This document shows, one piece after another, positions 2,384 through 64,000 of a DNA stretch of 64,000 nt (the first letter of the stretch is position 1; each line of letters opens with the position of its first letter). Made by a program: the position numbers and the translations under genes. Under the pieces are notes generated by a model, which saw nothing but the letters and a program-made list of their open reading frames with translations, was not told where the DNA came from and did not search any database. The stretch lies in the NCBI GenBank assembly GCA_964493435.1, contig CAZBMB010000005.1, positions 70,588-134,587 on the forward strand, in the 5' to 3' direction. The stretch comes from an uncultured Dehalococcoidaceae bacterium (lineage in GTDB: Bacteria > Chloroflexota > Dehalococcoidia > Dehalococcoidales > RBG-16-60-22).

Positions 2384-2417
2384 GCGGTATTGAAGGAATA
2401 TTTACTGGGAGGAAATA

Positions 2418-7161: not shown

Positions 7162-7166
7162 TTCAC

Positions 7167-9479: not shown

Positions 9480-9481
9480 TC

Positions 9482-13514: not shown

Positions 13515-13543
13515 GAACAATAACAACCGCCTCCCTGTTCTTC

Positions 13544-13573
13544 TTGACACTTTGTCCTGGTAAAACCTACAAT
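13544..13573 (+). promoter_or_regulatory. Candidate promoter of rpe
   Basis: TTGACA (13544-13549), 18 nt, TACAAT (13568-13573), about 30 nt upstream of the rpe start. Confidence 0.4.
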
Positions 13574-13608
13574 TACTGCGGTCAATTACCCTGTTAATCG
13601 GATTGCTA

Positions 13609-18847: not shown

Positions 18848-18875
18848 CTTAAATCTCCGCTCTTCATTATAGCAA

Positions 18876-25304: not shown

Positions 25305-25324
25305 ACGAGAGGTTATGCGCTTTG

Positions 25325-28068: not shown

Positions 28069-28772
28069 TGACAGAGCCACCAGGTATTTCCCCGCCTAAT
28101 TATAAGACTTTCCTTGTAGACTATCTTGGCATGGTGCCGTATGAGGTTGCCCTGAAGAAGCAGGATAGGTTGAGGCAACTAAGGGCGGAGGACAGAATTC
28201 CCGATGCCGTCCTGCTGCTGCAGCACCCGCATGTCTATACCATGGGTCGTTTCCATGGCGAAGAGGATATCATTGCCCTGACCAAAGAGATTCCTGTCTA
28301 CCACACCAACCGCGGCGGCAGCATAACCTATCACGGGCCGGGGCAGCTTATCGGTTATCCCATTCTTCACCTCAAAGCGAACGGCCTCGGTGTCCGCGAA
28401 TATATCTGGAAGCTGGAGGAGGTCATCATCAGGCTCCTGGGCGATTTCCACATAGAGGCACAGCGCCATAACAAATATCCGGGAGGCGTCTGGGCGAGCG
28501 GTGGTAAAATCTGCTCCGTAGGCATTAACGTCAGCCGTCATATCACCACGCACGGGTTTGCCCTCAACGTTAACAATGACTTAAAGTATTTTGTGAATAT
28601 CAGGCCCTGCGGCCTGCGGGACACAGCGATGACTTCAATGGCGGAACTTCTGGGCCATATATTACCGTTTGATATGGTAGTAAGTGAATGGATAAACTGG
28701 TTCTCGGCCATTTTCGCCATGAAGCCGGAAACCAGCCGCCCGCTCCCGGTTGAGGTGGACACAATTGCCTAG
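28056..28772 (+). CDS. lipB: Octanoyltransferase (lipoyl(octanoyl) transferase)
   Basis: Contains the [19 protein letters not shown] motif and the catalytic KICSVG region. Confidence 0.9.
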
Positions 28773-36436: not shown

Positions 36437-36961
36437 CTATCGAGAAAGCTTGGCGTATATACTCCAAGCCTGAACTACGGTTTCTTCGCGGAGTTGCCAG
36501 GCCCCAGCAAGCGCCTCTTCCCTCCTCTTCTTAGCCTCCTCTATCCGCTCCTCGCACCTCCTCTCCGCCTGTTCTTTTTCCTTCTTGAACGCTCTTTCTG
36601 CCTGCGAAACGGCATCATCACGCGCTTTAAGTGCCGAGGCTAACATCTCATCGCGTGCTTGCATAGCCTCTTTTACCGCTTCATCATGGGCTTTCTCCGC
36701 CTGCTGCTCGGCACGCTTGTAGGCTTTGGCAATTTGTTGCTCATTGGCCCGATAGGCACTGGCCACCTGCCGCTGCGCTTCCATGAAAGCAGCGTAAGCT
36801 CTTTCTGCCTGTCCCAATACCTCCTCAAGCGGCGTAGACGGTTGCGCTTCTACTTCGGCGCTGACCTCTTCCACTTCTTCAGGAACGGCTTCAGCCGCTT
36901 CCTCAACTACTTCTTCGGCTTCCTCATTAACCTTTTTGGCCTGTTCCTTTGGGTTCGCCAT
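36437..36961 (-). CDS. Ala/Glu/Lys-rich coiled-coil protein (174 aa), acidic N-terminus
   Basis: Strong AGGAGGT RBS. Composition-biased helical sequence (AERAYAAFMEAQRQVASAYRANEQQIAKAYKRAEQQAEKAHDEAVKEA...). I recognise no enzymatic motif. Confidence 0.7.
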   Translation of the reverse strand: MANPKEQAKKVNEEAEEVVEEAAEAVPEEVEEVSAEVEAQPSTPLEEVLGQAERAYAAFMEAQRQVASAYRANEQQIAKAYKRAEQQAEKAHDEAVKEAMQARDEMLASALKARDDAVSQAERAFKKEKEQAERRCEERIEEAKKRREEALAGAWQLREETVVQAWSIYAKLSR

Positions 36962-39195: not shown

Positions 39196-39393
39196 CAACC
39201 TCACACCAAATTGTTTTACACAATTCTAATATACGTTTACTATATTTTCAACATTTTTTATTAAGTCAAGAATTCTTCCAGATAATATTTGGGCAATCAT
39301 TGACTTCACCACAGTCTTATTTTTACTCTCCCCCGACGTTATTACCAGATACTTTATTACTACGTTTATCAGTACCTCCCTAAAGCGCAGAGA

Positions 39394-39423
39394 TTGACAT
39401 TATACTACAAGTGTGTTTAAAAT
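39394..39423 (+). promoter_or_regulatory. Promoter of tubulin-like gene 2
   Basis: ATTGACATT (-35 at 39394-39399), 18 nt, TAAAATAAC (-10 at 39418-39423), within an AT-rich 250-bp divergent intergenic region. Confidence 0.5.
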
Positions 39424-39457
39424 AACTAAACTCTATAATTTTCATCAGAGGTGGGCT

Positions 39458-40636
39458 ATGAAACTAGTAGTCGTAGGTTTCGGACAGTGTGGTGGTCGAA
39501 TTGCTGACGAGTTTGCCCGTTTGAACAAGAAAGCTAAAAGCCAGCGTGGCATTGAGATAGTCACCGGTTGCTACGCGGTCAATGCCGATGCGGCTGACCT
39601 GAGCGGTCTCACCAGCATCAAAAAGGATTACCAGCATAGGATCCTCATCGGTAGTCGCAAGACAGGCGGCCACGGCGTGGGTAAGATAAACGAACTCGGC
39701 GCTGAGATCGCCCGAGAGGATGGCGATAAGGTAATCGACGCGATAAGAACCACAAAACGTTTCTTTGAGACAGATGCCTTCCTGTTTATTGCCAGTGCCG
39801 CCGGTGGCACCGGTTCCGGGTCAGTCTCAGTGATGACGCAGCACATAAAAGAAAGATATGTCGATAAGCCTATTTACAATCTCATCGTCCTTCCCTTTGA
39901 ACATGAGGAAACCACCGAGGACCGAACCATGTATAATACCGCCACCTGTTTAAAGTCCTCATACTCCGTGGCTGACGCCGTATTTCTGGTGGACAACCAG
40001 AGATTCGTACGCAAGGATTCTTCTATCAAAGGTAATATTTCCAAAATCAACGCCATGATTGCGGAGCCGTTCTACAACATGCTGTGTGCCGGCGAGGAAA
40101 AGAAAGCCAAGTACATTGCCTCAAAGGTGCTTGATGCCGGCGATATTATCCAGACGCTGGTTGGCTGGACGGTAATCGGCTACGGTAAGTCGGATATCCC
40201 TCTAATCAGGTTCCGTCGCGAATCAAGGCGTGATTTCAGGGCTAAAGGAGATGAGACCTTAAAGGGCATCCAGGCCATGGATGAAGCCATAAGCGAGCTG
40301 TCACTGAAATGCAATCCTGTTGATTCCAAGAGATCTCTTTACCTCATCTCGGCGCCGGGCAAAGAGATGAACATGGACATGGTTAAAGCTCTCGGGGATT
40401 ATATGAGGGATATTGCACCGGAAGCCCTTATCAGAAACGGCGATTATCCACGTGAAAGAGGCGTGCTTGATGTTACCGTAATCCTGTCCGAACTCAGTGA
40501 TGTGGAAAAGGTGCGAACTTACTATACCCAGTCCACCCAGCTTATCCCCGAGTTCAAGAAGCGACAGGAAGAAACCGAAGTCAAACTGAGAGCCATAGAA
40601 GACGCCTCCAAAGACATCCCGTCCCTGCTCTCTTAA
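39458..40636 (+). CDS. Tubulin/FtsZ-superfamily GTPase, CetZ-like, paralog 2
   Basis: MKLVVVGFGQCGGRIADEF, ASAAGGTGSG, FLVDNQR, LDAGDIIQTL, and a C-terminal ...KDIPSLLS. About two-thirds identical to paralog 1 by eye. The ATG at 39458 has a GAGGTG RBS; the track start at 39413 adds 15 unconserved residues. Confidence 0.8.
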   Translation: MKLVVVGFGQCGGRIADEFARLNKKAKSQRGIEIVTGCYAVNADAADLSGLTSIKKDYQHRILIGSRKTGGHGVGKINELGAEIAREDGDKVIDAIRTTKRFFETDAFLFIASAAGGTGSGSVSVMTQHIKERYVDKPIYNLIVLPFEHEETTEDRTMYNTATCLKSSYSVADAVFLVDNQRFVRKDSSIKGNISKINAMIAEPFYNMLCAGEEKKAKYIASKVLDAGDIIQTLVGWTVIGYGKSDIPLIRFRRESRRDFRAKGDETLKGIQAMDEAISELSLKCNPVDSKRSLYLISAPGKEMNMDMVKALGDYMRDIAPEALIRNGDYPRERGVLDVTVILSELSDVEKVRTYYTQSTQLIPEFKKRQEETEVKLRAIEDASKDIPSLLS

Positions 40637-40829: not shown

Positions 40830-42494
40830 ATGGCTTCTCAGGTCTTTTACCGCCGGTGGCGACCACAGACCCTTGCCGAAGTGGTCGGTCAGGAACAAGT
40901 AACCAAGACACTGCACAATGCCCTGACTGGCGGTCACGTATCTCATGCCTACCTTTTTTGTGGTCCACGCGGTACCGGCAAGACCAGTACGGGACGCATT
41001 CTCGCCAAGGCGGTTAACTGCCTTACCAACGAAGGTAAGGGTGAACCATGCAACTCCTGCGACATGTGTCAGGCAATCACCGAAGGCAGAGCTCTGGATG
41101 TCATCGAAATCGACGCCGCCAGCAATACCGGCGTGGATAATATCCGCGACCTCAGGGAAAAGGTCAATTACTCGCCAAATGAAGCGCGGTACAAGGTATA
41201 TATCATAGATGAAGTACACATGCTGAGCACCAGTGCTTCCAATGCGCTGCTTAAAACGCTTGAAGAGCCACCCCCACACGTCATCTTTGTTCTGGCCACC
41301 ACCGAGGTGCATAAAGTGCTGCCCACCATCATGTCGCGCTGCCAGCGCTTTGATTTCAGGCGGATTTCACAGGCCGACGTGGTGACCAAGTTGACTCAAA
41401 TCAGTAAAAAGGAGACCATTAAAATCGAGCCGGAAGCGCTGAAACTCATCGCCCGGGCCGCCACCGGCAGTCTGCGAGATGCCGAGAATCTTCTGGAACA
41501 GCTGACGACGTACTACGACAAGAAAGTCACTCTGCCGCAGGTTCAGACAATCTTGGGTATTACCGGTGACTCGCGAGCTAAAGAGATAATAAAACATATT
41601 GTTAATAACGATGTCACCGCGGGCATATCGGCCATAAACGGTATCAATAGTGATGGACTGGACCTTCGTCAGTTCAATCGGGAACTGGTACTATACCTAA
41701 GGGCACTGCTGCTGGTGAAAACAGGCTCTGGTGAATCAATAGACCTGCCCACCGAGGACATTGCCGAATTGAAAGAACTGGCCAGCAAGATTTCACTGGC
41801 GCAGATACTGAAAGCGGTAAAACTCTTCGGGCAGCTTGACCTCAGCCTCGACAACTACTCTACACTACCGATGGAGTTGGCGTTGGTGGATGCAACACTG
41901 CCTTCCGGTAAAGAGCCGCCAGCGGTAAAAGTGGAACCAGAGGTACGGCAACCTGCCAAGCCAGCGGCTCCAGAGGTGCCATTGACGAAGTCAGAAAAGG
42001 CACCCGTTGAAAAAGAGGGACGTGCCCGTCCAGCAGATGAACAGAAGCTTGAACCGGCACCGGTAACAGCCCCAGCCCAAGCAGAGGAAAAAAGCCCGCC
42101 AGAACCAGAACCGGAACCCGCACTAGTTCCGACAGAAGCTGCCCCCGCCGTACCCATTGGGGGCGGTGGTGAGGAAATTGAGTATCTGCAATCGAACTGG
42201 CTCAAGTTCATCCGGGACGCCCCTTCCAGCATGAGCCGAACTCCAGCGGCGGCTCTGCTCAGGAGCGCCAAGCCGAAGGCCATTGAAAAAAATACCGTCA
42301 CCCTGTCTTTCAAGTTCCCACTGCATAAGGAAAGCATGGAAAAAACGGATAATCTGCAGATAGCCGAGCAAATTATCAGCAACTTTCTGGGTCGTGCCTG
42401 CCGCGTCCACTGTGTTTCCGAGCCAGAAGCAAACCACCTGATTGAGGAAGCCCTGAAAATAGGCGCTCAGATTATTGAATCGGAGGAAAAATGA
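40830..42494 (+). CDS. dnaX: DNA polymerase III subunit gamma/tau
   Basis: Walker A GPRGTGKTS, a zinc module CNSCDMC, DEVHMLS, and a Pro/Ala/Glu-rich linker. Confidence 0.95.
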   Translation: MASQVFYRRWRPQTLAEVVGQEQVTKTLHNALTGGHVSHAYLFCGPRGTGKTSTGRILAKAVNCLTNEGKGEPCNSCDMCQAITEGRALDVIEIDAASNTGVDNIRDLREKVNYSPNEARYKVYIIDEVHMLSTSASNALLKTLEEPPPHVIFVLATTEVHKVLPTIMSRCQRFDFRRISQADVVTKLTQISKKETIKIEPEALKLIARAATGSLRDAENLLEQLTTYYDKKVTLPQVQTILGITGDSRAKEIIKHIVNNDVTAGISAINGINSDGLDLRQFNRELVLYLRALLLVKTGSGESIDLPTEDIAELKELASKISLAQILKAVKLFGQLDLSLDNYSTLPMELALVDATLPSGKEPPAVKVEPEVRQPAKPAAPEVPLTKSEKAPVEKEGRARPADEQKLEPAPVTAPAQAEEKSPPEPEPEPALVPTEAAPAVPIGGGGEEIEYLQSNWLKFIRDAPSSMSRTPAAALLRSAKPKAIEKNTVTLSFKFPLHKESMEKTDNLQIAEQIISNFLGRACRVHCVSEPEANHLIEEALKIGAQIIESEEK

Positions 42495-42796
42495 ACAGGT
42501 TCATGTTACAGCAGGCCCAGAAACTCCAGGCACAGCTGGCTAAAGCCCAGGAAGAATTGAGCGAGCTTACCGTTGAGGGCAGCTCTGGAGGCGGCGCGGT
42601 CAAGGTGGTCATGAACGGGCAGCAGAAAATACAATCGGTAACAATATCACCCGAGGTGGTCAACCCGGAAGACGTTGAGCTGTTGCAGGACCTGGTGCTG
42701 ACCGCCGTCAGCGAAGCCCTCACCAAGTCCCAGGAAGCAGCCGCCAAGCACCTCGGCGGTCTTACCGGCGGTCTTAAAATTCCCGGACTAACCTGA
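42491..42796 (+). CDS. ybaB: Nucleoid-associated protein YbaB/EbfC
   Basis: 101 aa in the classic dnaX-ybaB-recR arrangement. Confidence 0.9.
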   Translation: MNRFMLQQAQKLQAQLAKAQEELSELTVEGSSGGGAVKVVMNGQQKIQSVTISPEVVNPEDVELLQDLVLTAVSEALTKSQEAAAKHLGGLTGGLKIPGLT

Positions 42797-48898: not shown

Positions 48899-48988
48899 GG
48901 AGGGGTGTCCGAGTGGCCTATGGTGACGGTCTTGAAAACCGTTGTTCTCGCAAGAGGACCGTGGGTTCGAATCCCACCCCCTCCGCCA
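48899..48988 (+). tRNA. tRNA-Ser (anticodon UGA), CCA encoded
   Basis: Acceptor stem GGAGGGG / CCCCTCC, anticodon loop CTTGAAA, long variable arm, T-arm GTGGG-TTCGAAT-CCCAC, discriminator G plus CCA. Confidence 0.9.
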
Positions 48989-49010
48989 TATTTCCCCCGA
49001 ATATCTAAAA

Positions 49011-49736
49011 ATGAAACCTGAACCCCTGCTCAAAGCCCTCACCGGTGCCGGCCTCGGCTCACGCCGCAGGATGGCCGACGCCATAAAATACGAGCGCGTC
49101 ACCGTCAACGGCGCGGTGGTGACCAACTTCCGCCACCCGGTGAACCTGGCGGAGGACGTAATCACTCTCGACGGCAGGAAGCTAGACCTCAAGCCCGCAC
49201 CGACGGTAACCCTGATGCTGCACAAGCCGGCGGGGTACATCTCCACCCTCAGCGATGAGCGTGGTCGGAGGAAAGTCACCGATTTACTCCCGGATAAATA
49301 CCGCCATTTACGGCTCTACCCGGTGGGGCGGCTGGACAAAGACAGCACCGGCCTGCTGCTCCTCACCAACGACGGCGACCTCGCCTACCGCCTGACCCAC
49401 CCCCGCTACGAGCATGAGAAGGAATATTTTGTCCAGATTCAGGGAAAGCTAAGCAGGGAGGAAATGAGAAAGCTGGAGCAGGGCATCGAGCTTGAGGAGG
49501 GCAAGACCGCTCCCGCCAGGGTGGAAGAAGTATCTGCGGAACCCTTCAACCACAGCCTCACCATCCACGAGGGCCGGAAACGACAGGTGCGCCGCATGTT
49601 CAGTCACCTGGGGCGCAGGGTTACGGCGCTCAAGAGAATCAGATTCGGAACGCTGGCGCTGGGCAACCTGCCAGAAGGAAAAACGCGGGAGCTCGGCGCT
49701 CAGGAGATAGCTCTACTGCTCACTCGCGCTCGATAG
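49011..49736 (+). CDS. Pseudouridine synthase, RsuA/RluB family
   Basis: N-terminal S4 domain and the catalytic GRLDKDSTGLLLLTNDG motif. ATG at 49011; the track start at 48942 would lie inside the tRNA. Confidence 0.85.
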   Translation: MKPEPLLKALTGAGLGSRRRMADAIKYERVTVNGAVVTNFRHPVNLAEDVITLDGRKLDLKPAPTVTLMLHKPAGYISTLSDERGRRKVTDLLPDKYRHLRLYPVGRLDKDSTGLLLLTNDGDLAYRLTHPRYEHEKEYFVQIQGKLSREEMRKLEQGIELEEGKTAPARVEEVSAEPFNHSLTIHEGRKRQVRRMFSHLGRRVTALKRIRFGTLALGNLPEGKTRELGAQEIALLLTRAR

Positions 49737-51297
49737 ATACCTTGTTCAGGTTAGCGTAACCCATTGGTGTAAGCTCGTAGCCGCTGACATAGGGTTTGAC
49801 CAGATGGTAGTTCTTGCTGAACCAGAGCGGAATACAGGCGGCGTCCTCGACCAGCATCTGCTCGGCTTCCTGATAGAGCGCCAGGCTGGCATCATAGTCA
49901 AGTTCCACCCCCGCCTGCTCCAGAATATCGTCCACCTCGGGGTTGCTGTACTCGCCGGCGTTATTCTCCTCGCCGGTGCGGAAAAGTATTTCAAGGAAGT
50001 CCTGAGGGTGGGGATAGTCAGCCACCCAGCCCAAGAGGTACATCTCGTCCTTCTCTTCCTTCAGGTTGTAGAGAAACCACTCCGGCTCCAACTGCCTGAC
50101 CGTGACCTCCACGCCGAGGTTCTGCCGCCACTCGTGGATTACGGCCTCAAGACCGCTTGAAATAAGTCCCCCCCAGCCCATGGTCGTCACCGTAATCGGC
50201 GGCAGGTTCTCCACACTCCCATAACTGGAACTGGCAATAAGCTCCTTCGCCTTTTCAATATCAAACCCCAGGCCCTCCAGGTTCTCGTTGAAGCCGGGAA
50301 TGCCCGGCGGCAGAATGCCATCAGCCCGTTCCATCATATCTTTAAAGACCAGCGAGACCAGCCTGTCCTTGTCCAGGGCCATGCTGAAGGCACGCCTCAG
50401 ATTGGCATCGTCGAATGGAGGCCGGGTGTGATTGAAGCCGATATAACTAAAGCTCAGTTCGGGCACAATCTGCAGTTCCTTATAAAAGTTGCCCGCCGGA
50501 TCGGTTACCTTATCCACGTAATTGATATCAACGTCGGTGGCATCAATTTCCCCGGTCTCATACAGATTCATCGGCACGCCTCCCCAGAGCTGAAAAACCA
50601 CCGTGCCAACCTTGGCTTTTTCTCCGTGGTAATAGTCGTTCTTTTCCAGAACCAGCAGATTCTCCGCCTCCCATTTTTTCAGCCGAAATGGGCCGGTGCC
50701 GTTGGGCTCAAGCCACCACTGACCACCCATTTCCGCCTCGTTTCTGTCCACCACGAACGCCACGGGGTAGGTCATCTTGGACAGGAAATAGGACTTCGGG
50801 GTATCAATGGTTATCTGGAGTGTATAGTCATCAATAACCTGCACCCCGCTTATTTCCCGCGCCTTCCCGGCCAGCACATCTGCAACGCCAACGATGTCTC
50901 CCAGATAGGTGGCCGCGGTCATCGACCCCGTAGACGGAAGGCAGGCGCGCTCCAGCGAATACTTGCAATCATGGGCGGTGACCTGCCGACCGTCCTGGAA
51001 CTTGACATCCCGTCGCAGATAAAAAGTGTAGGTGCGACCGTCAGTGCTGATGTCCCAGCGCTCGGCGATGTCCGGAGCCGGTTCCAGATTCTCATCAAGG
51101 CGCACCAGTCCACTATAAATCTGCTGGATATATTCATGGGAAATCATCTCCCCGGATACTGCCGGGTCAAGGGTAATCGGGTCGATGCCGTAGAGGTTCA
51201 GCGCCGTTTCCTGCCCGCGCTGACAGCCGACCAGCACCAGGCCACACAGTATTAATACGGCGAAAATGCTATAAATGACGCGTTTCATCTCCGGCAC
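49720..51297 (-). CDS. ABC transporter solute-binding lipoprotein, family 5 (peptide/nickel type)
   Basis: Signal peptide with lipobox LVGC, 525 aa, family-5 SBP-like sequence. No permease or ATPase genes adjacent. Confidence 0.8.
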   Translation of the reverse strand: MPEMKRVIYSIFAVLILCGLVLVGCQRGQETALNLYGIDPITLDPAVSGEMISHEYIQQIYSGLVRLDENLEPAPDIAERWDISTDGRTYTFYLRRDVKFQDGRQVTAHDCKYSLERACLPSTGSMTAATYLGDIVGVADVLAGKAREISGVQVIDDYTLQITIDTPKSYFLSKMTYPVAFVVDRNEAEMGGQWWLEPNGTGPFRLKKWEAENLLVLEKNDYYHGEKAKVGTVVFQLWGGVPMNLYETGEIDATDVDINYVDKVTDPAGNFYKELQIVPELSFSYIGFNHTRPPFDDANLRRAFSMALDKDRLVSLVFKDMMERADGILPPGIPGFNENLEGLGFDIEKAKELIASSSYGSVENLPPITVTTMGWGGLISSGLEAVIHEWRQNLGVEVTVRQLEPEWFLYNLKEEKDEMYLLGWVADYPHPQDFLEILFRTGEENNAGEYSNPEVDDILEQAGVELDYDASLALYQEAEQMLVEDAACIPLWFSKNYHLVKPYVSGYELTPMGYANLNKVSIERE

Positions 51298-51311
51298 CTA
51301 TTCATACCTAG

Positions 51312-52373
51312 TTACAGATTGGCCTCGACTGCCTTGCAGAACTCGGCCGTGGTGGCGCTTCCTCCCTGGTCGCGGGTGAGATGTTTCCCGTCCTGATATA
51401 CTTTGTATATCGCTGCCTCCAGCTTTGCCGCTTCTTTCTCATAGCCTAGATGTTCCAGAAGCATACCGCCGGCCAGGAGCATGGCGGTGGGATTTATGAT
51501 ATTTTTCCCGGCGATATCGGGCGCCGTGCCGTGTACCGATCCGAAGTAAGCAAATTCCTTGCCGACGCAGGTATTTGGCGCCAGCCCCAGCCCACCGATA
51601 AGCGCCGCGGCTTCGTCCGCCAGAATATCGCCATGCTGATTGCCCATAATTAACACATCGAACTGCTGCGGGTTGATGACCAGTTGCTGGGCACAGTTAT
51701 CAACTATCAACTGATTGAACGTAAGTTCGGGGTACTGCTTGACCGTCTCCTCAGCGATGCGACGGAACATCTCATCCACCTGCGTCAGCAAATTGTACTT
51801 GCTGGACACGGTAACCAGTCCTTTACCACCCCTGGCTTTTCGCCGCATGGCTATTTCGCAGGCCATGCGGCAGATATCCTTCGTTATCGCTTCCGTGTTT
51901 ACTTTAACGGCAAACTTACCCTTCATCGTGGTGTCCAGCGTCATATTGAGCATGTCATTCTTCAATTTCAATGGTTTTAACTGCTCAATATCACCTTCCC
52001 AACCGGGATAAAGCCCTTCGATATTCTCCCGCATGATAACAAAATCAATACCTTCAGGGTTCTTCAGCGGACTCCTCAGGCCCTGAACATATTTTACCGG
52101 GCGGATGTTAGCAAAACACTTTTTCCCCCACCGCAGGTAGCCATGTACGCCCCTGATGTTACGGGTTGAGCCCATAATGGCGCAGTCTGACTCATCAAGC
52201 ATCTTTTTTGCTGATTCGGGAAAGCCGGTGCCATACTTGGCGACGGCCTCATCGCCAGTCTCGGTCCGGATAAATTCAATATCCAGGTTCATTTTCTCCA
52301 AAATCTGAACCGTAGGCACCACTACCTCCGGTGCCGCGTCATCTCCCGGCACCACGCATACTCGTCTGGTCAT
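51312..52373 (-). CDS. Isocitrate/isopropylmalate dehydrogenase family oxidative decarboxylase
   Basis: 353 aa with an N-terminal VPGDDAAPEV and NQHGDILADEAAALIGGLGLAP motifs. Substrate not resolvable by eye. Confidence 0.8.
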   Translation of the reverse strand: MTRRVCVVPGDDAAPEVVVPTVQILEKMNLDIEFIRTETGDEAVAKYGTGFPESAKKMLDESDCAIMGSTRNIRGVHGYLRWGKKCFANIRPVKYVQGLRSPLKNPEGIDFVIMRENIEGLYPGWEGDIEQLKPLKLKNDMLNMTLDTTMKGKFAVKVNTEAITKDICRMACEIAMRRKARGGKGLVTVSSKYNLLTQVDEMFRRIAEETVKQYPELTFNQLIVDNCAQQLVINPQQFDVLIMGNQHGDILADEAAALIGGLGLAPNTCVGKEFAYFGSVHGTAPDIAGKNIINPTAMLLAGGMLLEHLGYEKEAAKLEAAIYKVYQDGKHLTRDQGGSATTAEFCKAVEANL

Positions 52374-52558
52374 TCATACCTCCTGCTCAATACACTATTA
52401 ATCAACTTTATGGCTAAACACAACTAACTAGTGTAGCACATTAGCCTCGCCCCTGCCTACTTGATTTTCCCGACTGAGTGATTGTTCGGTGACCAGCAGG
52501 TATACAGAAGCAGGCATAAGGTATTATAATCTAGGCTAAAGTACAATGGCATAGAAAA

Positions 52559-53068
52559 ATGCACTTTGACTTCTGGGATTCGTTACGACGCAGACTGCAC
52601 CGCATACGCCGCGGTTTCAGCCGACTGTGGCTCAATTACATCTATCAGAGCCTTCTGGCCACGGCGGTCATCTTTATTATCCTTCTTTTATTGAACCTGG
52701 AACACGTAGTGGTAATTGCCTCCATCGGTGCCACCGCTTTTATTGTTTTCACCATGCCCCGCAATGTCACCGCGACGCCCAGGCGGGTAATCGGCGGGCA
52801 TATCACCGGCCTTATCTGTGGCTCAGCCTTCGCCTTTATCCCCCACGCCACCACCTTCACCGCCATTCTCGTCTATTCGCTGGCCGTAGGCACGGCTATC
52901 TTCCTCATGGTAGCATTGGATGTGGAACATCCCCCTGCCGGCGGCACAGCGCTGGGAGTGGCTATCACCGGCTTTTCCATCAGCGTCATGCTGGCGGTGC
53001 TGACTAGCAGCATCATACTCTCGCTCGCCCACCGTTTCTGCAAAAGATACCTGAAAGACCTGACCTGA
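52559..53068 (+). CDS. HPP-family integral membrane protein
   Basis: Four hydrophobic segments and an EHPPAGGTAL motif. Confidence 0.6.
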   Translation: MHFDFWDSLRRRLHRIRRGFSRLWLNYIYQSLLATAVIFIILLLLNLEHVVVIASIGATAFIVFTMPRNVTATPRRVIGGHITGLICGSAFAFIPHATTFTAILVYSLAVGTAIFLMVALDVEHPPAGGTALGVAITGFSISVMLAVLTSSIILSLAHRFCKRYLKDLT

Positions 53069-57289: not shown

Positions 57290-58357
57290 ATGGATAAAAA
57301 GCTGACCGGGAAAGTGCAGACGGTGCTAGGGCTGATAGATGGTGATGAGCTGGGGTTAACCACACCTCACGAGCACATTCTTCTTGACCTGACCGTGCGC
57401 TTCAAACTTGCCGAGGAGAGCGTTACCGCCAAGACCATGGCCGAAAAACCAATGACGCCGGATATGGCGGGCTGGATACGCTTTCACCTCTTTGAGAACC
57501 GGGACAATTTGCTGCTCAACGACGAAACGCTGGCAATCAAAGAAATCATGCGTTTCAAGCTCGCCGGGGGAAAGAGCGTGGTGGATGTTACCAACTGGGG
57601 CATAGGACAGGACCCGTACGCCATGGCCCGTATTGCCCGCGCCACCGGCCTCAATATCATCATGGGTACTGGCTACTACACCATGGATTCAGGCTGCGCC
57701 GAGGTGCTGGCCAGGAAATCTGAAGAGGAGATATACCAAGACATCATCAATGATGTTACGGTCGGAACCGATGGTATCTGCGCTGGCATCATCGGTGAGA
57801 TAGGGGCTGACTCGTGGCCGCTTCACGAGATTGAAATAAAGTCGCTGCGGGCGGCGGTCCGGGCACAGTTAGCCACCGGGGCCGGCCTGACCATCCACCC
57901 CGGCCGATTTGACGAATCACCGCTCCAGATTGTTGATACTATCCAGAAAGCTGGCGCCGATATGAGCCGGGTGGTTATTGAGCACATTGACCGCACTGCC
58001 TACTCCTTTGATACTATGACGAAAATCGCCAAAGCCGGATGCTACCTTGAGTTCGACTGCTTCTCCATGGAAGGCTACTATCCGAAGCGCTACGGCGTGT
58101 TTGATATCCCGAATGACGCCCAGCGCGTCAATTACATTATCCGGCTTATGGAACTGGGCCACCTGAACCAGATACTCATCGCCACGGACACGGCCATGAA
58201 ATCAAGGCTGACGGCCTATGGTGGCCCCGGCTACGCCCATATTCCGGAAAACGTCATCCCCTGGATGCGCGCCAAGGGCATGTCCGAAGAAGTCATCAAC
58301 ACCATTACCGTGGAGAACCCGAGGCGGATGCTGACCTTCGTGGCGCCGTCAAAATAA
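57290..58357 (+). CDS. Phosphotriesterase-family (PTE/PHP) amidohydrolase, lactonase-like
   Basis: N-terminal HxH metal motif TTPHEHILLD. 355 aa TIM-barrel hydrolase pattern. Confidence 0.8.
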   Translation: MDKKLTGKVQTVLGLIDGDELGLTTPHEHILLDLTVRFKLAEESVTAKTMAEKPMTPDMAGWIRFHLFENRDNLLLNDETLAIKEIMRFKLAGGKSVVDVTNWGIGQDPYAMARIARATGLNIIMGTGYYTMDSGCAEVLARKSEEEIYQDIINDVTVGTDGICAGIIGEIGADSWPLHEIEIKSLRAAVRAQLATGAGLTIHPGRFDESPLQIVDTIQKAGADMSRVVIEHIDRTAYSFDTMTKIAKAGCYLEFDCFSMEGYYPKRYGVFDIPNDAQRVNYIIRLMELGHLNQILIATDTAMKSRLTAYGGPGYAHIPENVIPWMRAKGMSEEVINTITVENPRRMLTFVAPSK

Positions 58358-58373
58358 TCTGTTCTGGCTAATT

Positions 58374-59759
58374 CTACAGGTAAGGCGAGGTAAGTGGCAG
58401 TTTTAAACCAAATTGCCTGGTGAACTGCTGCCTCATCTTCCGGTAGAACTCGATGCACTCCTTATTCGGCGTTCCGGCAGCGATATCAAAATAGTCCGGC
58501 AGCTTTTTACCCAGCGGCGGGTCTTTCAGCTTGTCCTCGTAATAGCCCAGCAGAGTCGCCACCATTTTGTTGGCTTCTTTCCGGCTCATACCGGCTGACG
58601 CGTGAGCGACGGCATTGCTGAAAATATTCTCAATCGGGTCGCTGTAATCCTCCATAACGCCTCTTGCCGGAGGGCCCACCTCCACAGAACCACCGGATAC
58701 CACCGTCGCCATCACCCAGGCAGCAAATTCGTAGTAACACATTTCGGTCATAGGGCCGGCCGAGGTATAGCCGGGAGCAACAATGGGCAACGGGCTGTGA
58801 CGCGTCGCTGCCTGAATACCCAGGCACCGGGACCAGATGGCTCCCCTTATGGATGTCGTGCCACCTTCAACGGGCACCACCAGCGGGTGCTGAGCCACAC
58901 CGCGTATGACCAGCAGGGCCAGGGGATGGTATGCCGCACAGACTACCGCTACCCCCGCCGGGCCACCGGCAAAACCCCCCAGAATCAGGCCATTCTCGGC
59001 AAAAGTCCGGTTTCCCACCGCCTGACAGTAGGCCACCTTGTTCAGGGCATCAAAGTCAATCTTCAGCTCATGAATGGTGCCGATTTCCAGAGCATCGGTT
59101 CTGGGGTCGCCGAAGGTATGGCCGGTAATATGCTCCGTCGCCCTCACTGCCGAGGCCACTTCATTTACCACCGGCATTCCCGGACGCCCGGCGCGGCGCA
59201 GCGCTTCCCGTACCAGAAGCACCGTCCTGATGGCGCCTTCCACACCCCGTGGACTGCCGGCGACCAGGTCCCGGCCGTCAAGGTTGGTCAGGCATGGTGC
59301 CGTAATACCATCGGACAGCGGGTCCTCGGCATAAGCCTTGACGACATTTATCAGGTTCCACTCCGTAGATACCGGGCCTGCTCCGCAGCCGGAGCACCAG
59401 GGAGGTGTTTCATCTTCGGGGGTACGTCTCGGCATCAACCTTGAATCTTTGCCGTACCCGTACACCACATTACGTGGCGCTGACTCCAGCGCACCCTCTA
59501 TCTCTTCTCTGGAAAACAGCATGCGCCTCTCCGTATCGACGCAGTAGACACCGGTCTCCACCAGAAACTCCATGCCCGCTTCCCAGACACGGTCGGCAAG
59601 GTCGTCATCGGCGGGCACCGGGTTCTGAGGGTCATATTTGATACCGTACTTCTCAATTACCTTACGCAGGTTGGGCACGAAAATATCCAGGTCAAAATCC
59701 CGCTCCGTGCATATCGGCCCGCTAAGTGCTCTCTCCACTACTTGATCAAAACTGAGCAT
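58374..59759 (-). CDS. MtmB-like (monomethylamine methyltransferase family) protein without pyrrolysine, copy 1
   Basis: 461 aa uninterrupted ORF. Colinear from memory with methanogen MtmB (AGMEFLVETGVYCVDTERR; AGRPGMPVVNE, where MtmB has GRPGMGV-Pyl-GPE). Confidence 0.75.
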   Translation of the reverse strand: MLSFDQVVERALSGPICTERDFDLDIFVPNLRKVIEKYGIKYDPQNPVPADDDLADRVWEAGMEFLVETGVYCVDTERRMLFSREEIEGALESAPRNVVYGYGKDSRLMPRRTPEDETPPWCSGCGAGPVSTEWNLINVVKAYAEDPLSDGITAPCLTNLDGRDLVAGSPRGVEGAIRTVLLVREALRRAGRPGMPVVNEVASAVRATEHITGHTFGDPRTDALEIGTIHELKIDFDALNKVAYCQAVGNRTFAENGLILGGFAGGPAGVAVVCAAYHPLALLVIRGVAQHPLVVPVEGGTTSIRGAIWSRCLGIQAATRHSPLPIVAPGYTSAGPMTEMCYYEFAAWVMATVVSGGSVEVGPPARGVMEDYSDPIENIFSNAVAHASAGMSRKEANKMVATLLGYYEDKLKDPPLGKKLPDYFDIAAGTPNKECIEFYRKMRQQFTRQFGLKLPLTSPYL

Positions 59760-59817
59760 TATTATTCTCCGCCATATTATTTATGTATCTCACCCTGGCT
59801 CCTTTCCTTTATGTCAA

Positions 59818-61203
59818 TCACACGTATGGCGAGGTGAGCGGCATTTTAAGCCCGAACTTATCCATCATCTCGCTTCTCATTTTTCGGTAGAGCTCAAGGC
59901 ATTCCTTTTTAGGTGTTCCAGAAACGATGTCAAAGTAATCCTGGAATTTGGTGCCAGCTGGCGAGTTGTTCAGCTTGTCCTCATAGCTGTCAAGGAGTGC
60001 TGAGACAATCCTGTTGGCTTCTTTCCGGCTCATACCAGCGACGGCGTGCGCCACCGCATTGCCGAAGATTTCCTCTATGGGGCCACTATGGTCAACAACA
60101 ACACCCCGGGACGGAGGAGCGATCTCAATGGAACCGCCGGGAACCACGGAAGCGATTATCCCCGCCGCATACTCGTAGTAGCACATCTCAGTCATCGGCC
60201 CGGCCACCGTATATACCGGAGTCACCATCGGCAGAGGGCTGTTGCGGGCCGTCGCCTGATTGGCCACGCTTCTGGCCCAGATTGTTTCCCGGTTAGAAGT
60301 CGTACCACGTTCAATAGGTACCGCGAAGGGATGTTGAGCCACCCCACGTATGACCAGCAGGTCCACCGGATTATAGGCGGCGCTGACCACGGCAACACCA
60401 GCGGGGCCACCGGCAAAGCCTCCCAGAATCACGCCGTTTTCGGCGAAAGTCAGGTTTCCCACAGCCTGGCAATACGCCACCTTGTTCAGGGCATCAAAAT
60501 CGACCTTAAGCTCATGCATGGTACCGATTTCCAGGAAATCTGTGCTCGGATTCCCGAAGCTGTGCCCGGCTATATGTTCTGTGGCCCGTATTGCTGAAGC
60601 TACCTCGTTGACCACCGGCATCCCCGGACGCCCGGCGCGGCGCAGCGCTTCCCGTACCAGAAGCACCGTCCTGATGGCGCCTTCAACCCCTCGCGGGCTG
60701 CCGGCGACCAAGTCCCGGCCGTCCAGATTGGTCAGGCACGGCGCTGTAATACCATCGGACAGCGGGTCTTCAGCGTAGGTCTTGACGATATTGATGAGGT
60801 TCCACTCTGTAGACACCGGCCCTGCCCCCGAACCCGAGCACCAGGGTGGCGTCGCGTCTTCAGGCAGACGCCGTGGCATCTCTCGGGCGTCTTTCCCTTC
60901 ACCGAATATCACTTTGCGGGGGCAGGACTCCAGCGCCCCCTCTATTTCCTCGCGGGAGAATAGGATTCGTCGCTCGGTATCAAGGCAGTAGACTCCGGTC
61001 TCCACCAGGAATTCCATGCCCGCTTCCCAGACCCTGTCCGCCAGGTCGTCATCGGCGGGCACCGGGTTCTGGGGGTCATACTTGATATCATATTTTTCAA
61101 TCGCTCTGCGCAAATTGGGCACTAAAATACCCAGGTCAAAGTCACGTTCCGTGCATATCGGCCCGCTAAGTGCTCTCTCTACTACTTCATCAAAGCTGAG
61201 CAT
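59818..61203 (-). CDS. MtmB-like protein without pyrrolysine, copy 2
   Basis: 461 aa, very similar to copy 1 and sharing a 62-nt identical DNA run (60623-60684 versus 59179-59240). Confidence 0.75.
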   Translation of the reverse strand: MLSFDEVVERALSGPICTERDFDLGILVPNLRRAIEKYDIKYDPQNPVPADDDLADRVWEAGMEFLVETGVYCLDTERRILFSREEIEGALESCPRKVIFGEGKDAREMPRRLPEDATPPWCSGSGAGPVSTEWNLINIVKTYAEDPLSDGITAPCLTNLDGRDLVAGSPRGVEGAIRTVLLVREALRRAGRPGMPVVNEVASAIRATEHIAGHSFGNPSTDFLEIGTMHELKVDFDALNKVAYCQAVGNLTFAENGVILGGFAGGPAGVAVVSAAYNPVDLLVIRGVAQHPFAVPIERGTTSNRETIWARSVANQATARNSPLPMVTPVYTVAGPMTEMCYYEYAAGIIASVVPGGSIEIAPPSRGVVVDHSGPIEEIFGNAVAHAVAGMSRKEANRIVSALLDSYEDKLNNSPAGTKFQDYFDIVSGTPKKECLELYRKMRSEMMDKFGLKMPLTSPYV

Positions 61204-61220
61204 GATTCTTCTCCGGTATT

Positions 61221-62609
61221 CTATAGATAAGGCGAAGCGCTGGTGAACTTAATGCCGAACTGGTCAGTTATCTCCCGTCTGATTTCAAGATACAGCTTCA
61301 GAAATTCTTGGTTCGGCTGGCCGGTTACCGGGTCGCAGCATTCCTGGTATTTCTGCCCAATCGGAGGTTCACGAAGCTGCGATTCATATTTCTCCAGCAG
61401 CGCCTTCAGGATATCATTGGCTTCTTTGCGGCCCATGCCGACCACAGCGTGTGCCACCTCGCTGGCCAGGAGAGGCTCCACCGGGCTGGTGTAGTCAAGG
61501 GCAGTACCTCTTGCCGAGGCTCCAACTTCAACTGAGCCGCCGGAGACCACCGAGGCGATAACCCAGGCGCAGTGCTCATAGAAAAGCATCTTGGTCATCG
61601 GGCCGGCGGCCGAATAGCCGACGTTAACCACCGGCAGGGTGCTGTTCCGCGTGACCGCCTGGTTGGACACGCTACGCGCCCAGACGGTGTCCCGTGCTGA
61701 GGTAACGCCAAGATCGAAATGGGTTGGGAAGGGGTGTTGCACGGCACCGCGCAGGATCAGCAGGTCCACCGGATTGTAGGCCGCCGTCACCACCGCCACG
61801 CCAGCCGGTCCGCCAGCCAGCCCGCCCAGAATGACCCCGTTCTCGGCAAAAATCAGGTTGCCAGCGGCCTGCGAAAAGGCTACCTTGTTCATGGTGTCAA
61901 AATCGACCTTCATCTCATGTATGGTACCGATTTCCAGCGCATCCGACCTGCGGATGCCAAAATAATGGGCGGCGATGTGCTCCTGAGCCCTGGCGGCGGT
62001 GGTAACACCGTTGACGATGGGCATCCCCGGACGGCCAGCACGGCGCATACCCTCACGAGTTAGCAATACCGCTCTGATGGCGCCCTCTATCCCCAGCGGG
62101 CTGCCACCCACTATCGGCTGCCCATTCACCTGAGTTAAACAGGGTATGGTGATGCCGTCCCCCAGTGGATTTTCGGCATGTGCTTTGACCAGGTTTACGT
62201 AGTGCAACTCCGAGGAAAGCGGTGAGGAGGTGGGGCCAACCGAACACCACGGCGGCAGGGTGTCTTCCGGAAAACGCCGTGGCATGACCCGGGTATCCTT
62301 GCCCTCACCAAAGACACGACCACACGGACCCGACGCCAGCGCGCCGTCTATCTCCTCGCGGCTGAAGAGAATCCGCCGCTCGGTATCAACGCAGTAGACA
62401 CCGGTCTCCCCCAGGAATTCCAGGCCCGCTTCCCAGACCCTGTCCGCCAGGTCATCGTCGGCGGGCACGGGATTTTCAGAGTCATATTTAATACCGTACT
62501 TCTCAATTACTTTACGCAAATTGGGCACTAAAATACCCAGGTCAAAATCTCGTTCCGTGCATATCGGGCCGCTTAGTGCCCTCTCCACAACCGTCCAGAA
62601 ACTTAACAT
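61221..62609 (-). CDS. MtmB-like protein without pyrrolysine, copy 3 (most diverged)
   Basis: 462 aa with the same N-terminal MLSF..VVERALSGPICTERDFDL, AGRPGMPIVNG, and a C-terminal ...SPYL. Confidence 0.75.
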   Translation of the reverse strand: MLSFWTVVERALSGPICTERDFDLGILVPNLRKVIEKYGIKYDSENPVPADDDLADRVWEAGLEFLGETGVYCVDTERRILFSREEIDGALASGPCGRVFGEGKDTRVMPRRFPEDTLPPWCSVGPTSSPLSSELHYVNLVKAHAENPLGDGITIPCLTQVNGQPIVGGSPLGIEGAIRAVLLTREGMRRAGRPGMPIVNGVTTAARAQEHIAAHYFGIRRSDALEIGTIHEMKVDFDTMNKVAFSQAAGNLIFAENGVILGGLAGGPAGVAVVTAAYNPVDLLILRGAVQHPFPTHFDLGVTSARDTVWARSVSNQAVTRNSTLPVVNVGYSAAGPMTKMLFYEHCAWVIASVVSGGSVEVGASARGTALDYTSPVEPLLASEVAHAVVGMGRKEANDILKALLEKYESQLREPPIGQKYQECCDPVTGQPNQEFLKLYLEIRREITDQFGIKFTSASPYL

Positions 62610-62623
62610 GCGCTGGCTCCTTC

Positions 62624-63277
62624 CTACTTCTGCGATATCGCCTTCATTGCCAGAGCGGCGGCGTCACCAGCCGTCCTGCCATAACCATCGGCGCCGATGC
62701 TGTCGGCCCACTCCTGGGTTGTCGAGCCGCCACCGACCAGGACACGGTACTTAGCACGCGCTCCGCGCGCCTCAAGGTGCTCGATGATGCTCTTTTGCTG
62801 CGGGATGGTGGTGCTCATCAGCGCCGAAGCAGCGATGATATCGGCGCCGACCTCCTCCGCTTTGGTAACAAAGGTGGAAGCGGTTACATCAACACCAAGG
62901 TCGAAAACCTCAAAGCCGTTCATCTTCAGCATCGCCCCGACGATGTTTTTCCCGATGGAATGGATATCTCCCTTCACCGTGCCGATAACCACCCGCCCCA
63001 CTTTCTTCCGCTCAATCCCTGACTCCAGCAGCTTTGGCTCCAGAATCTTCATCGCGCCTTCCCATGCCTCCGCTGCCATCATCATCTCCGGCAGGTAGAT
63101 TTCATACCGGGCGAAACGTTCGCCAACCTCTTTCATGCCCGGAGACATCCCCTTCTCAATGATATCCGACGGCGGGGTACCGCCTTTCAGGGCATCGGCC
63201 ACCACCTGCTCCAGGCCACTGCGGTCGCCGGCGATGATGGCATTGTACAATTGTTCAAAAATGGGCTTGTCTGGCAT
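62624..63277 (-). CDS. Cobalamin-binding corrinoid protein (MtmC/MtbC-like)
   Basis: 217 aa with a helical cap domain plus a B12-binding Rossmann domain. Contains GDIHSIGKN (DxHxxG), SALMSTT and VLVGGG. Confidence 0.9.
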   Translation of the reverse strand: MPDKPIFEQLYNAIIAGDRSGLEQVVADALKGGTPPSDIIEKGMSPGMKEVGERFARYEIYLPEMMMAAEAWEGAMKILEPKLLESGIERKKVGRVVIGTVKGDIHSIGKNIVGAMLKMNGFEVFDLGVDVTASTFVTKAEEVGADIIAASALMSTTIPQQKSIIEHLEARGARAKYRVLVGGGSTTQEWADSIGADGYGRTAGDAAALAMKAISQK

Positions 63278-63304
63278 TATTGACTCCTTTCCTGTTTGTA
63301 AATA

Positions 63305-64000
63305 TCAGAATAGACCTTCCCTCTTCAGACTCAGGTATTTCTGGTCCCCGATGATAACATGGTCCAAGACATCTATTCCCATAATCTCGCCCGCTTCGGC
63401 GAGTCGCTTGGTCAGCCCTATATCATCCTCGGAGGCTTCCGGGTCGCCGGAGGGGTGATTATGAACGAAGATAACCGAAGCGGCACTGGCGGAAACGGCC
63501 TCTTTGAATACCTCCCTGGGATGGACAATGCTGCTGTCCAAGCTGCCGATGGATATCTCGGCCGCCCGGATAAGCTGATTCCTGGTATCCAGGAGCAGGG
63601 CCATGAAGTATTCCTTCTTCTTGTCTTTTAGTCGGCCGCGCAGCAGCGAAACGACATCTTCAGGGGTTTTCACCACCTCCCTTTTCCCACTATCCTGGTA
63701 GCTTTCCAGCCGACTGGTCAGTTCAAAAGCAGCTTTTATCTGCGCCGCCTTGGCCAGACCGATTCCCCTGACTTTGGACAGCTCCTCAAGCGAGGCACCG
63801 GCAATTCCCTTGAGGCTGCCGAACTGGCTCAGAAGCCTCTGAGTGGTTACCATCACCGACTCGCCGGCGATGCCCCGGCCCAGAATAAGAGCCAGTATTT
63901 CCTGAGCCGAAAGCGCCTCGGCACCGAACTTCTGCAATCGCTCTCTCGGCCGCTCAGATACCGGCAAATCGTGGACGGTAAATGACTTTTTTACTTTATT
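63305..64000 (-). CDS. radC: RadC-family JAMM/MPN protein; 5' end probably just beyond window
   Basis: Contains SERPRERL, HhH-like GIGLAKA and JAMM motif HNHPSGDPEASEDD. The frame stays open to base 64000 (..KSFTVHDLPVSERP) with no start codon inside. Confidence 0.85.
   Translation of the reverse strand, partial: NKVKKSFTVHDLPVSERPRERLQKFGAEALSAQEILALILGRGIAGESVMVTTQRLLSQFGSLKGIAGASLEELSKVRGIGLAKAAQIKAAFELTSRLESYQDSGKREVVKTPEDVVSLLRGRLKDKKKEYFMALLLDTRNQLIRAAEISIGSLDSSIVHPREVFKEAVSASAASVIFVHNHPSGDPEASEDDIGLTKRLAEAGEIMGIDVLDHVIIGDQKYLSLKREGLF

Follow-up and report, generated by a model that had tools for sequence, protein, structure and literature searches.

A corrinoid protein gene followed by three MtmB-family genes

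The 64,000-nucleotide (nt) stretch of DNA analyzed here (the window) belongs to contig CAZBMB010000005.1 of an uncultured Dehalococcoidaceae bacterium (assembly GCA_964493435.1) and carries, on its minus strand between positions 58374 and 63277, four back-to-back open reading frames (ORFs). The first encodes a corrinoid protein of 217 amino acids (aa), and the next three, designated B1, B2 and B3, encode methyltransferases of the MtmB type [Table 1]. Spacers of 14 nt (corrinoid gene to B1), 17 nt (B1 to B2) and 58 nt (B2 to B3) separate the four genes, and radC precedes the corrinoid gene by 27 nt on the same strand. Coordinates, strand, lengths and spacers were exactly those of an initial annotation made from the letters of this DNA, and the motifs quoted in it were recovered in the ORFs (GDIHSIGKN in the corrinoid protein; VWEAGMEFLVETGVYCVDTERR and RRAGRPGMPVVNE in the paralogs). 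B1, B2 and B3 contain no internal stop codon; B1 and B3 terminate in TAG and B2 terminates in TGA. The ratio of nonsynonymous to synonymous substitution rates (dN/dS) ranged from 0.05 to 0.14 over all comparisons of MtmB copies (B1, 0.055–0.094; B2 versus B3, 0.097; B3, 0.060), indicating that all three paralogs are maintained by selection. The system composed of the corrinoid protein and three MtmB-type enzymes is genuine, intact and well conserved.

The spacer between B2 and B3 holds GGAAAGGAGCCAGGGTG, a near-copy of the ribosome-binding and start context that precedes B1 (GAAGGAGCCAGCGC) and the corrinoid gene (GGAAAGGAGTCAATA), and is apparently a relic of a tandem duplication junction. 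Promoter and terminator scans of positions 57800–64000 yielded signals at chance level and were uninformative as to the limits of the operon.

Table 1 Features of the corrinoid–MtmB array and of a candidate partner gene (window positions)
Feature	Positions	Strand	Basis
Corrinoid (B12) carrier protein, cognate type, 217 aa	62624-63277	-	Pfam, TIGR02370, motifs, PDB homologs
B1, non-pyrrolysine MtmB-family methyltransferase, 462 aa, core 'NG' class, orthogroup T1	61221-62609	-	PF05369, 301 bits
B2, non-pyrrolysine MtmB-family methyltransferase, 461 aa, 'NE' class, orthogroup T2, extra copy	59818-61203	-	PF05369, 292 bits
B3, non-pyrrolysine MtmB-family methyltransferase, 461 aa, 'NE' class, orthogroup T2	58374-59759	-	PF05369, 270 bits
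B2–B3 spacer, 58 nt	59760-59817	-	Read directly from sequence
Omega-type class-III aminotransferase, candidate downstream partner, ~36 kb from array	21429-22844	-	Pfam Aminotran_3

Assignment of the paralogs and of their carrier protein

All three paralogs matched the Pfam family PF05369 (MtmB) with scores of 301.4 (B1), 292.5 (B2) and 270.5 (B3) bits against a cutoff of 25, the alignments spanning 441–445 of the 450 profile positions (about 4–447) in each. None of the three matched PF06253 (MttB family), and NCBIfam held no model for them. When B1 was compared to PDB sequences with phmmer, it matched solely the monomethylamine methyltransferase MtmB1 of Methanosarcina barkeri (1l2q/1nth/1tv2; E 4e-57), residues 8–449 of B1 being colinear with residues 13–453 of MtmB at 30% identity. 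An AlphaFold2 model of B1 generated from an 87-sequence alignment (pLDDT 94.8, pTM 0.93) was matched by Foldseek to the same crystal structures (1nth/1l2q/1tv2) with a TM score of 0.94 and a root-mean-square deviation of 1.6 Å over 453 columns; the next matches, structures of MttB and MtgB, had TM scores of ~0.5 at 12% identity. Membership of the paralogs in the MtmB family is thus established at the level of sequence and of predicted fold. Both the profile search with the Pfam MtmB family, in which all three proteins matched at full length (270–301 bits), and the comparison of the B1 model with the crystal structure agree with the initial annotation, which had assigned the paralogs to MtmB rather than MttB and described them as colinear with the M. 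barkeri enzyme.

The corrinoid protein combines a B12-binding_2 cap (PF02607) with a Rossmann-type B12-binding domain (PF02310), and carries the His-on motif set DxHxxG..SxL..GG (DIHSIG at position 104, SAL at 151 and GG at 182). It exceeded the cutoff of TIGR02370, 'methyltransferase cognate corrinoid protein' (217.5 versus 215.3 bits). The top-scoring model was that of MtgC (222 bits, below the MtgC cutoff), and the MtbC model gave 194 bits, below its own cutoff. The closest solved structures were those of MttC (7xcn_M, 1e-52), a cobalamin-binding protein from Moorella (1y80, 2e-46) and MtmC (3ezx, 4.5e-40). That a single cognate corrinoid protein is common to the tandem methyltransferases, as first annotated, is borne out by the Pfam domains, the TIGR02370 score and the PDB homologs.

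The pyrrolysine site and the pocket

M. barkeri MtmB carries pyrrolysine (Pyl) at position 202. The clade to which the window enzymes belong has a one-residue insertion at this point (RPGMP-I/V-V-N-x), and the Pyl202 column is therefore ambiguous by one residue, falling on Asn in the HMMER alignment and on the preceding Val in the MAFFT alignment. Whichever aligner was used, B1–B3 had no in-frame UAG at the Pyl202 position. Of 52 genes called in the window, 16 (31%) end in TAG, B1 and B3 among them. The only tRNA in the window is a tRNA-Ser, with no tRNA-Pyl, and no pyl-type gene was seen in the Pfam scan of the window ORFs. Judged by their genes, B1–B3 are Pyl-free, and TAG serves their host as a regular stop codon; the lack of pyrrolysine claimed at the outset is confirmed by the Val or Asn in the Pyl202 column and the absence of internal stops.

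Further residues were compared in M. barkeri numbering. Across the MtmB family the Glu229 and Glu259 columns mostly hold hydrophobic residues or Gly and, among 144 full-length sequences, both are acidic solely in the window clade, its nearest neighbor (P0122), M. barkeri MtmB and one Methanomassiliicoccales cluster. Near-invariant in the window clade are Met199, Asn203, Phe257, Asn260, Arg290, Gln294 and Tyr335. We take Glu229 and Glu259 to line the Pyl site in the MtmB crystal structures, and presume that these two residues, together with Gln333 and Tyr335, belong to the MtmB active site; our literature search returned no confirming source for the former placement or for a catalytic role of the four. 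The window enzymes thus resemble M. barkeri MtmB1, and its partner MtmC (PDB 1nth/1l2q), in Pfam family, fold, identity (30%), colinearity over ~445 residues, the AGRPGM that precedes the Pyl site, the acidic residues kept at 229 and 259, and the possession of a cognate corrinoid protein (MtmC 3ezx, E 4.5e-40). They differ from it in having Val-Asn and the one-residue insertion in place of Pyl202, and in that Glu205 and Gln333 are not conserved.

Relation to characterized Pyl-free methyltransferases

The initial annotation knew of no characterized non-Pyl MtmB homolog, a statement now outdated. MtqB of Methanococcoides methylutens Q3c is such a homolog (Kashyap et al., Front Microbiol, March 2026; PMC13044021), and uses tetramethylammonium and choline, and to a slight extent monomethylamine, to methylate cob(I)alamin; its gene lies directly downstream of an MtbC-like corrinoid gene. 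MtqB and its partner MtqC thus offer a close likeness to the system described here, in that a non-Pyl MtmB of ~460 aa, encoded directly downstream of an MtbC-like cognate corrinoid protein of ~216 aa, acts as a substrate:corrinoid methyltransferase (MT1) moving the methyl group of an N-methyl compound onto Co(I). An mtqCB-like layout is present in the window, the corrinoid gene lying 14 nt upstream of B1. Several differences were nevertheless apparent from the published description of MtqB. MtqB is archaeal, feeds coenzyme M via MtbA and has RamA in its genome, whereas the window genes are bacterial, of the Dehalococcoidia type; MtqB is a single gene, whereas the window clade occurs in tandem arrays of one to four; and the pocket described for MtqB consists of Met, Cys and aromatic residues, against Glu229, Glu259, Arg290 and Asn203 in the window clade. 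Finally, MtqB was placed near Pyl-MtmBs (PMC13044021), whereas in our neighbor-joining tree a wide distance separates the window clade from M. barkeri MtmB, MtqB having been compared by description only.

A further case, this one bacterial and likewise likened by description only, is Ga0180325_111810 of 'Ca. Formimonas warabiya' DCMF, a non-Pyl protein of the MtmB superfamily that was the most induced protein on dichloromethane (PMC9768040). It shares with the window enzymes a bacterial origin, the lack of Pyl and a proposed role outside monomethylamine use, but comes from a Firmicute host and another gene context. Beyond MtqB and the DCMF protein our literature search found no discussion of non-Pyl MtmB proteins, and no function reported for MtmB-family proteins of Dehalococcoidia or Chloroflexi. 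In the MttB family, the Pyl-free majority acts on other N-methyl compounds (MtgB on glycine betaine, MtpB on proline betaine, MtcB on carnitine and MtyB on gamma-butyrobetaine), has a small corrinoid gene next door and comprises paralogs for different substrates, all of which recall the present system; the enzymes themselves, however, are of an unrelated family (TM ~0.5, 12% identity, no PF06253 match in the window enzymes).

Place of the window clade in the MtmB family

Exhaustive searching of 1.84 billion cluster representatives revealed 1,056 MtmB-family clusters at 50% identity (E <= 1e-3), 212 of them at E <= 1e-30, and all 126 full-length representatives that were aligned are Pyl-free. 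The nearest homologs of the window enzymes (87–92% identity) come from metagenomes and metagenome-assembled genomes (MAGs) labelled Dehalococcoidia, Dehalococcoidales or Chloroflexota, while the closest full-length representatives outside their clade share 43–44% identity with them (a metagenome cluster, a Thermoleophilia MAG and a Bathyarchaeota cluster). In the neighbor-joining tree the window clade forms a tight cluster within a larger group characterized by 'x-Asn' at the position of Pyl. M. barkeri MtmB branches with proteins of Methanomassiliicoccales, well away from the window clade. From these sequences the window clade is distinct, abundant and Dehalococcoidia-specific, at most 44% identical to the other full-length family clusters seen. 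What is already known is a non-Pyl MtmB MT1 with a cognate corrinoid protein; what is new is this distinct Dehalococcoidia clade.

Look-ups of cluster names for MtqB returned solely Thermoleophilia, Bathyarchaeota, Anaerolineales and Methanohalobium in addition to unnamed entries. A profile built from the non-Pyl representatives nearest Pyl-MtmB matched proteins of Methanomassiliicoccales, Asgard archaea and Methanohalobium and no Methanococcoides protein, and a scan of GTDB genomes with one narrow pattern matched solely Methanomassiliicoccales and Methanohalobium loci, with no MtqB among them. A homolog search with a 459-aa Asgard protein gave solely Asgard and Bathyarchaeia matches. Two candidates for MtqB, P0363 and P0374, were discarded for want of an adjacent corrinoid gene; P0187 has one.

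Asgard archaea and Bathyarchaeia harbor a large conserved clade of 459-aa non-Pyl MtmBs with the motif GFHNLL. One Asgard MAG (GCA_016840285.1; L012:6001-10997) has a pair of MtmB-family genes that lack a corrinoid partner gene and are neighbored by genes of the PEMT, Ada and O6-methylguanine-DNA methyltransferase types. The methylotrophic methanogen Methanohalobium evestigatum Z-7303 (CP002069.1; L011:6001-7368) encodes an uninterrupted 455-aa MtmB-family protein (WP_013194885.1) without an adjacent corrinoid gene; its gene adjoins a Peripla_BP_2/FecCD/ABC importer of the B12/siderophore type.

Two classes of paralogs

A scan of metagenomes with a profile of the window clade retrieved 80 further loci at 51–91% identity (~85 loci overall), and average-linkage clustering of the 99 full-length MtmB copies that they contain separated two classes. 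The 'NG' class (groups T1, T3 and T5) has the motif PGMPIVN-G/A with His300 and Asn332 (M. barkeri numbering), and the 'NE' class (groups T2 and T4) has the motif VVN-E with Pro300 and a small residue at 332. At pocket-equivalent positions the two classes differ in the residue following the Asn and at 300, 332 and 333. B1 carries the motif PGMPIVNGVTTA with His300, Asn332, Val333 and Lys343, and B2 carries PGMPVVNEVASA with Pro300, Thr332, Pro333 and Glu343. B2 and B3 are 79% identical and differ at one of 18 pocket-equivalent positions (332; Ala in B3, Thr in B2), whereas B1 is 63–65% identical to B2 and B3 (65% to B2). In every syntenic locus the leading MtmB gene is orthologous to B1 (79–89% identity); B3 is the ortholog of the second gene in two-gene arrays (88% identity to L002_b), and B2 is an additional B3-type copy (81% identity to L002_b). 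Thirty loci carry T1 alone, nine carry T1+T2, two (the window and L052) carry T1+T2+T2, and five carry combinations of T3 and T4.

Because B2 and B3 are 79% identical, fall in one orthogroup and differ at a single one of the 18 pocket positions, the array probably represents two specificities rather than three, with B1 as the conserved core NG enzyme and B2/B3 as recent duplicates of an accessory NE enzyme. The three substrate-specific MT1 enzymes sharing one carrier that had been proposed at first therefore keep their common carrier but are reduced to two probable specificities, B1 belonging to a different and older class.

Related loci and their recurrent neighbors

In the 52 arrays with a visible upstream gene, the corrinoid gene came first in 35, was internal in 5 and was missing from 12. 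Arrays visible in full were arranged (C, corrinoid gene; B, MtmB gene) as CB in 16 cases, B in 11, CBB in 9, BCBB in 2 and CBBB in 2. The number of MtmB genes per array ranged from one to four, four being found solely in L009. This largest array (L009:9341-18922; JGI 3300041084 Ga0452213_000990) consists of one corrinoid gene and, after it, four MtmB paralogs and a DctP/Q/M tripartite ATP-independent periplasmic (TRAP) transporter; aminotransferases, an ornithine cyclodeaminase, DAO, ETF, SDRs and an arginase surround it.

Neighbors were counted in 41 loci lying outside the synteny type of the window, each with at least three visible neighbors. DctP/Q/M TRAP transporter genes were found in 15 of the 41, often directly downstream of the array, and a class-III aminotransferase was found in 14, often directly adjoining it; one or the other was present in 21. 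Other recurrent neighbors were an enolase together with a MOFRL glycerate kinase, a LarA-type racemase, Amdase-family and PALP proteins, a split thiamine pyrophosphate (TPP)-dependent decarboxylase, OCD/mu-crystallin and Ldh_2. The array-linked TRAP binding protein is nearest to binders of keto acids and lactate. The aminotransferase also adjoins loci with a single MtmB gene (L074, L094, L099 and L100).

The window itself encodes an aminotransferase of this kind [Table 1], 69–75% identical to its counterparts in L070, L076, L009 and L073, in the last two of which the aminotransferase gene immediately precedes the corrinoid gene. Its solved relatives are omega-, beta-alanine-, gamma-aminobutyrate-, taurine- and putrescine-type transaminases, and NCBIfam gave no model above cutoff for it. 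By comparison with these loci, the omega-transaminase of the window is a likely functional partner of the MtmB array that is unlinked in this genome.

In loci of the same synteny type as the window, the genes upstream of the corrinoid gene are those of ATP synthase, S16, endonuclease V, RF2, Peptidase_MA_2 and RadC; the corrinoid gene is followed by one, two or three MtmB genes, and downstream lie a convergent trio of PTE, MR_MLE and DHDPS-family genes, then a hydrolase, AKR, an HPP-family protein, isocitrate/isopropylmalate dehydrogenase and SBP_bac_5. Four loci of this type (L066, L068, L125 and L126) have a split TPP-dependent decarboxylase inserted between the MtmB and PTE genes, with TPP_enzyme_N (~165 aa) and TPP_enzyme_C (~190 aa) parts in the architecture of sulfopyruvate and phosphonopyruvate decarboxylases. 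The PTE/MR_MLE/DHDPS trio was considered as a hydroxyproline- or proline-betaine pathway (HpbD-type epimerase, Pyr4H2C deaminase), an assignment rejected by the closest structures, which were sugar-acid dehydratases and lactone cycloisomerases for the MR_MLE protein and true DapA for the DHDPS-family protein.

Neither a second methyltransferase (MT2) taking the methyl group from the corrinoid protein (URO-D/MtaA type, or pterin-binding MtgA/MtrH type) nor an activator of the RamA/RACo type was found among the 48 window ORFs scanned with Pfam and the 4 assigned by synteny (48942-53068). Four ORFs of 101–130 aa that fell outside the Pfam scan (7315-7707, 13308-13640, 18539-18907 and 42491-42796) are too short to encode either. 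The recurrent neighbor clusters and 20 further adjacent ORFs across the ~85 loci likewise contained no MT2 (URO-D, pterin-binding, MtrH) and no RamA/RACo. The initial annotation had placed the missing functions elsewhere in the genome or beyond radC. Their absence from the window stands; the second location does not, since syntenic contigs carry Peptidase_MA_2, RF2, endonuclease V, S16 and ATP synthase beyond radC and thus nothing relevant just past position 64000.

Proposed function

We propose that the four genes would form the substrate-activating half of a corrinoid-dependent methyl-transfer system, with one B12 carrier serving three Pyl-free MT1 enzymes of the MtmB family. Each MT1 would bind an N-methylated substrate in the funnel of its TIM barrel and, on the model of MtmB, MtqB and the MttB-family systems, should methylate the shared carrier in its Co(I) state. 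To be completed and kept running, the cycle would need two further proteins encoded elsewhere in the genome, namely a methyltransferase from methyl-corrinoid to tetrahydrofolate (or another acceptor) and a reductive activator dependent on ATP. The substrates would most likely be imported N-methylated amino-acid-like compounds bearing a carboxylate or similar anionic group, and the fully demethylated product would be a primary amine removed by the omega-transaminase. Here we infer the direction of methyl flow, the class of substrate, and the identity and location of MT2 and of the activator. The recurrence of TRAP transporters and class-III aminotransferases beside related arrays suggests that the substrates of the clade are anionic or zwitterionic N-methyl compounds yielding an omega-amine, an assignment in which we place modest confidence for this genome, where the array lies among housekeeping genes. 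Overall, MT1 and corrinoid modules that demethylate imported N-methylated amino-acid-like compounds with two specificities, and that are completed by genes elsewhere, appear to us the probable, if far from certain, explanation of the locus.

Several observations weigh against this proposal. The characterized non-Pyl corrinoid MT1 enzymes all act on quaternary amines. A primary amine would be reached only through the demethylation of tertiary and secondary amines, a more difficult reaction that is unproven in the MtmB family. The array of the window has no adjacent transporter or aminotransferase, and the convergent PTE, MR_MLE and DHDPS-family genes look like an unrelated sugar-acid/DapA set. 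The association with TRAP transporters and aminotransferases comes from loci at 63–85% identity and may not transfer to this genome. No MT2 or RamA was found in the window or adjoining any of the ~85 related loci, such that completion of the pathway is assumed, and the window enzymes were set against MtqB from its published description alone.

The alternative that fares best, although we consider it rather unlikely, is that B1–B3 are MtqB-like quaternary-amine methyltransferases acting on simple cationic compounds such as choline, tetramethylammonium or choline derivatives, the paralogs tuning no more than affinity or dosage. MtqB is itself a non-Pyl MtmB encoded directly downstream of an MtbC-like corrinoid gene in the same two-gene layout, the substrates of all characterized non-Pyl MT1 enzymes are quaternary amines, and in one related locus the neighbors are sulfatases, ATP sulfurylase and 3′-phosphoadenosine 5′-phosphosulfate (PAPS) reductase, which would fit choline sulfate as a source. 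The pocket of the window enzymes, however, keeps the acidic residues at 229 and 259 and Arg290 rather than the sulfur-containing and aromatic set described for MtqB, and the recurrence of TRAP transporters suggests substrates of anionic or zwitterionic character. These arguments are indirect, as is that from phylogeny, MtqB being described as branching near Pyl-MtmBs (PMC13044021) while the window clade sits on the opposite side of our neighbor-joining tree from M. barkeri MtmB.

A more specific possibility, which we hold to be improbable, is that the NG and NE classes act in sequence on one compound, independently of Pyl, taking a dimethyl substrate through the monomethyl form to a free amine that would feed the omega-transaminase. 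In its favor are the repeated co-occurrence of NG and NE enzymes behind a single corrinoid gene, the slight monomethylamine activity of MtqB (PMC13044021) and the aminotransferases, dependent on a primary amine, that adjoin 14 loci, those with a single MtmB gene (L074, L094, L099 and L100) included. The pair of acidic residues at 229 and 259 is, moreover, common almost solely to the clade and to Pyl-MtmB, an enzyme for a protonatable amine. On the other hand, the role of Glu229 and Glu259 in MtmB is one that we presume, 30 loci carry the NG class alone, the aminotransferase may act on something unrelated, and biochemistry offers no precedent of an MtmB-family enzyme that efficiently demethylates secondary or tertiary amines without Pyl. 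Equally doubtful is the bolder form of this idea, whereby the NG and NE paralogs of the Dehalococcoidia clade would strip successive methyl groups from a TRAP-imported secondary or tertiary N-methyl amino or sulfonic acid onto one corrinoid protein without Pyl, via Glu229 and Glu259, leaving a primary omega-amine for the linked transaminase. A non-catabolic role, be it the reverse methylation of an amine or other nucleophile from methyl-corrinoid or the supply of methyl groups to methionine or tetrahydrofolate pools rather than to energy metabolism, would sit well with the lack of a linked MT2 or RamA in any locus, the housekeeping surroundings of the window array and the many loci with a single corrinoid–MtmB pair and no transporter, but seems very improbable given that substrate:corrinoid methyl transfer is the activity of all characterized relatives (MtmB, MtqB), as it is of the analogous MttB-family systems, that TRAP importers and catabolic enzymes recur beside the arrays, and that up to four paralogs are typical of substrate-diversified catabolic MT1 sets.

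MtqB (2026) is the only Pyl-free member with a known substrate in a family of 1,056 clusters. While unsurprising in kind, the system described here is a better-specified target for substrate discovery, the comparative context providing a shortlist of N-methyl compounds that bear a carboxylate, enter through TRAP transporters and give an omega-amine on demethylation. If the demethylation of imported N-methylated amino-acid-like compounds proposed above is correct, it would represent a new route for abundant subsurface and sediment Chloroflexota to harvest methyl groups from methylated nitrogen compounds, and would extend the substrate range of the MtmB family beyond simple quaternary amines.

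Other features of the window

At its start the window carries a molybdopterin oxidoreductase gene, cut by the window boundary, with Fer4_11, cytochrome b561-type and FdhE-like genes (17-4740), followed by the hydrogenase maturation genes HypF, HypE-like, HypA and HypB (4834-10494). The glycine-cleavage genes GcvH, GcvPA and GcvPB occupy positions 24903-28772 together with a lipoate ligase of the LplA/B type; no GcvT was seen in the window. Two genes of the Tubulin/FtsZ family with an archaeal-type CetZ C-terminal domain lie on the plus strand at 35191-36366 and 39413-40636, where they flank two minus-strand ORFs without a Pfam match, of 726 aa (37024-39204) and 174 aa (36437-36961). CetZ-like tubulins are unusual in bacteria. 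The 36–40 kb stretch with these genes has a lower GC content (0.52) and strongly negative GC and AT skews.

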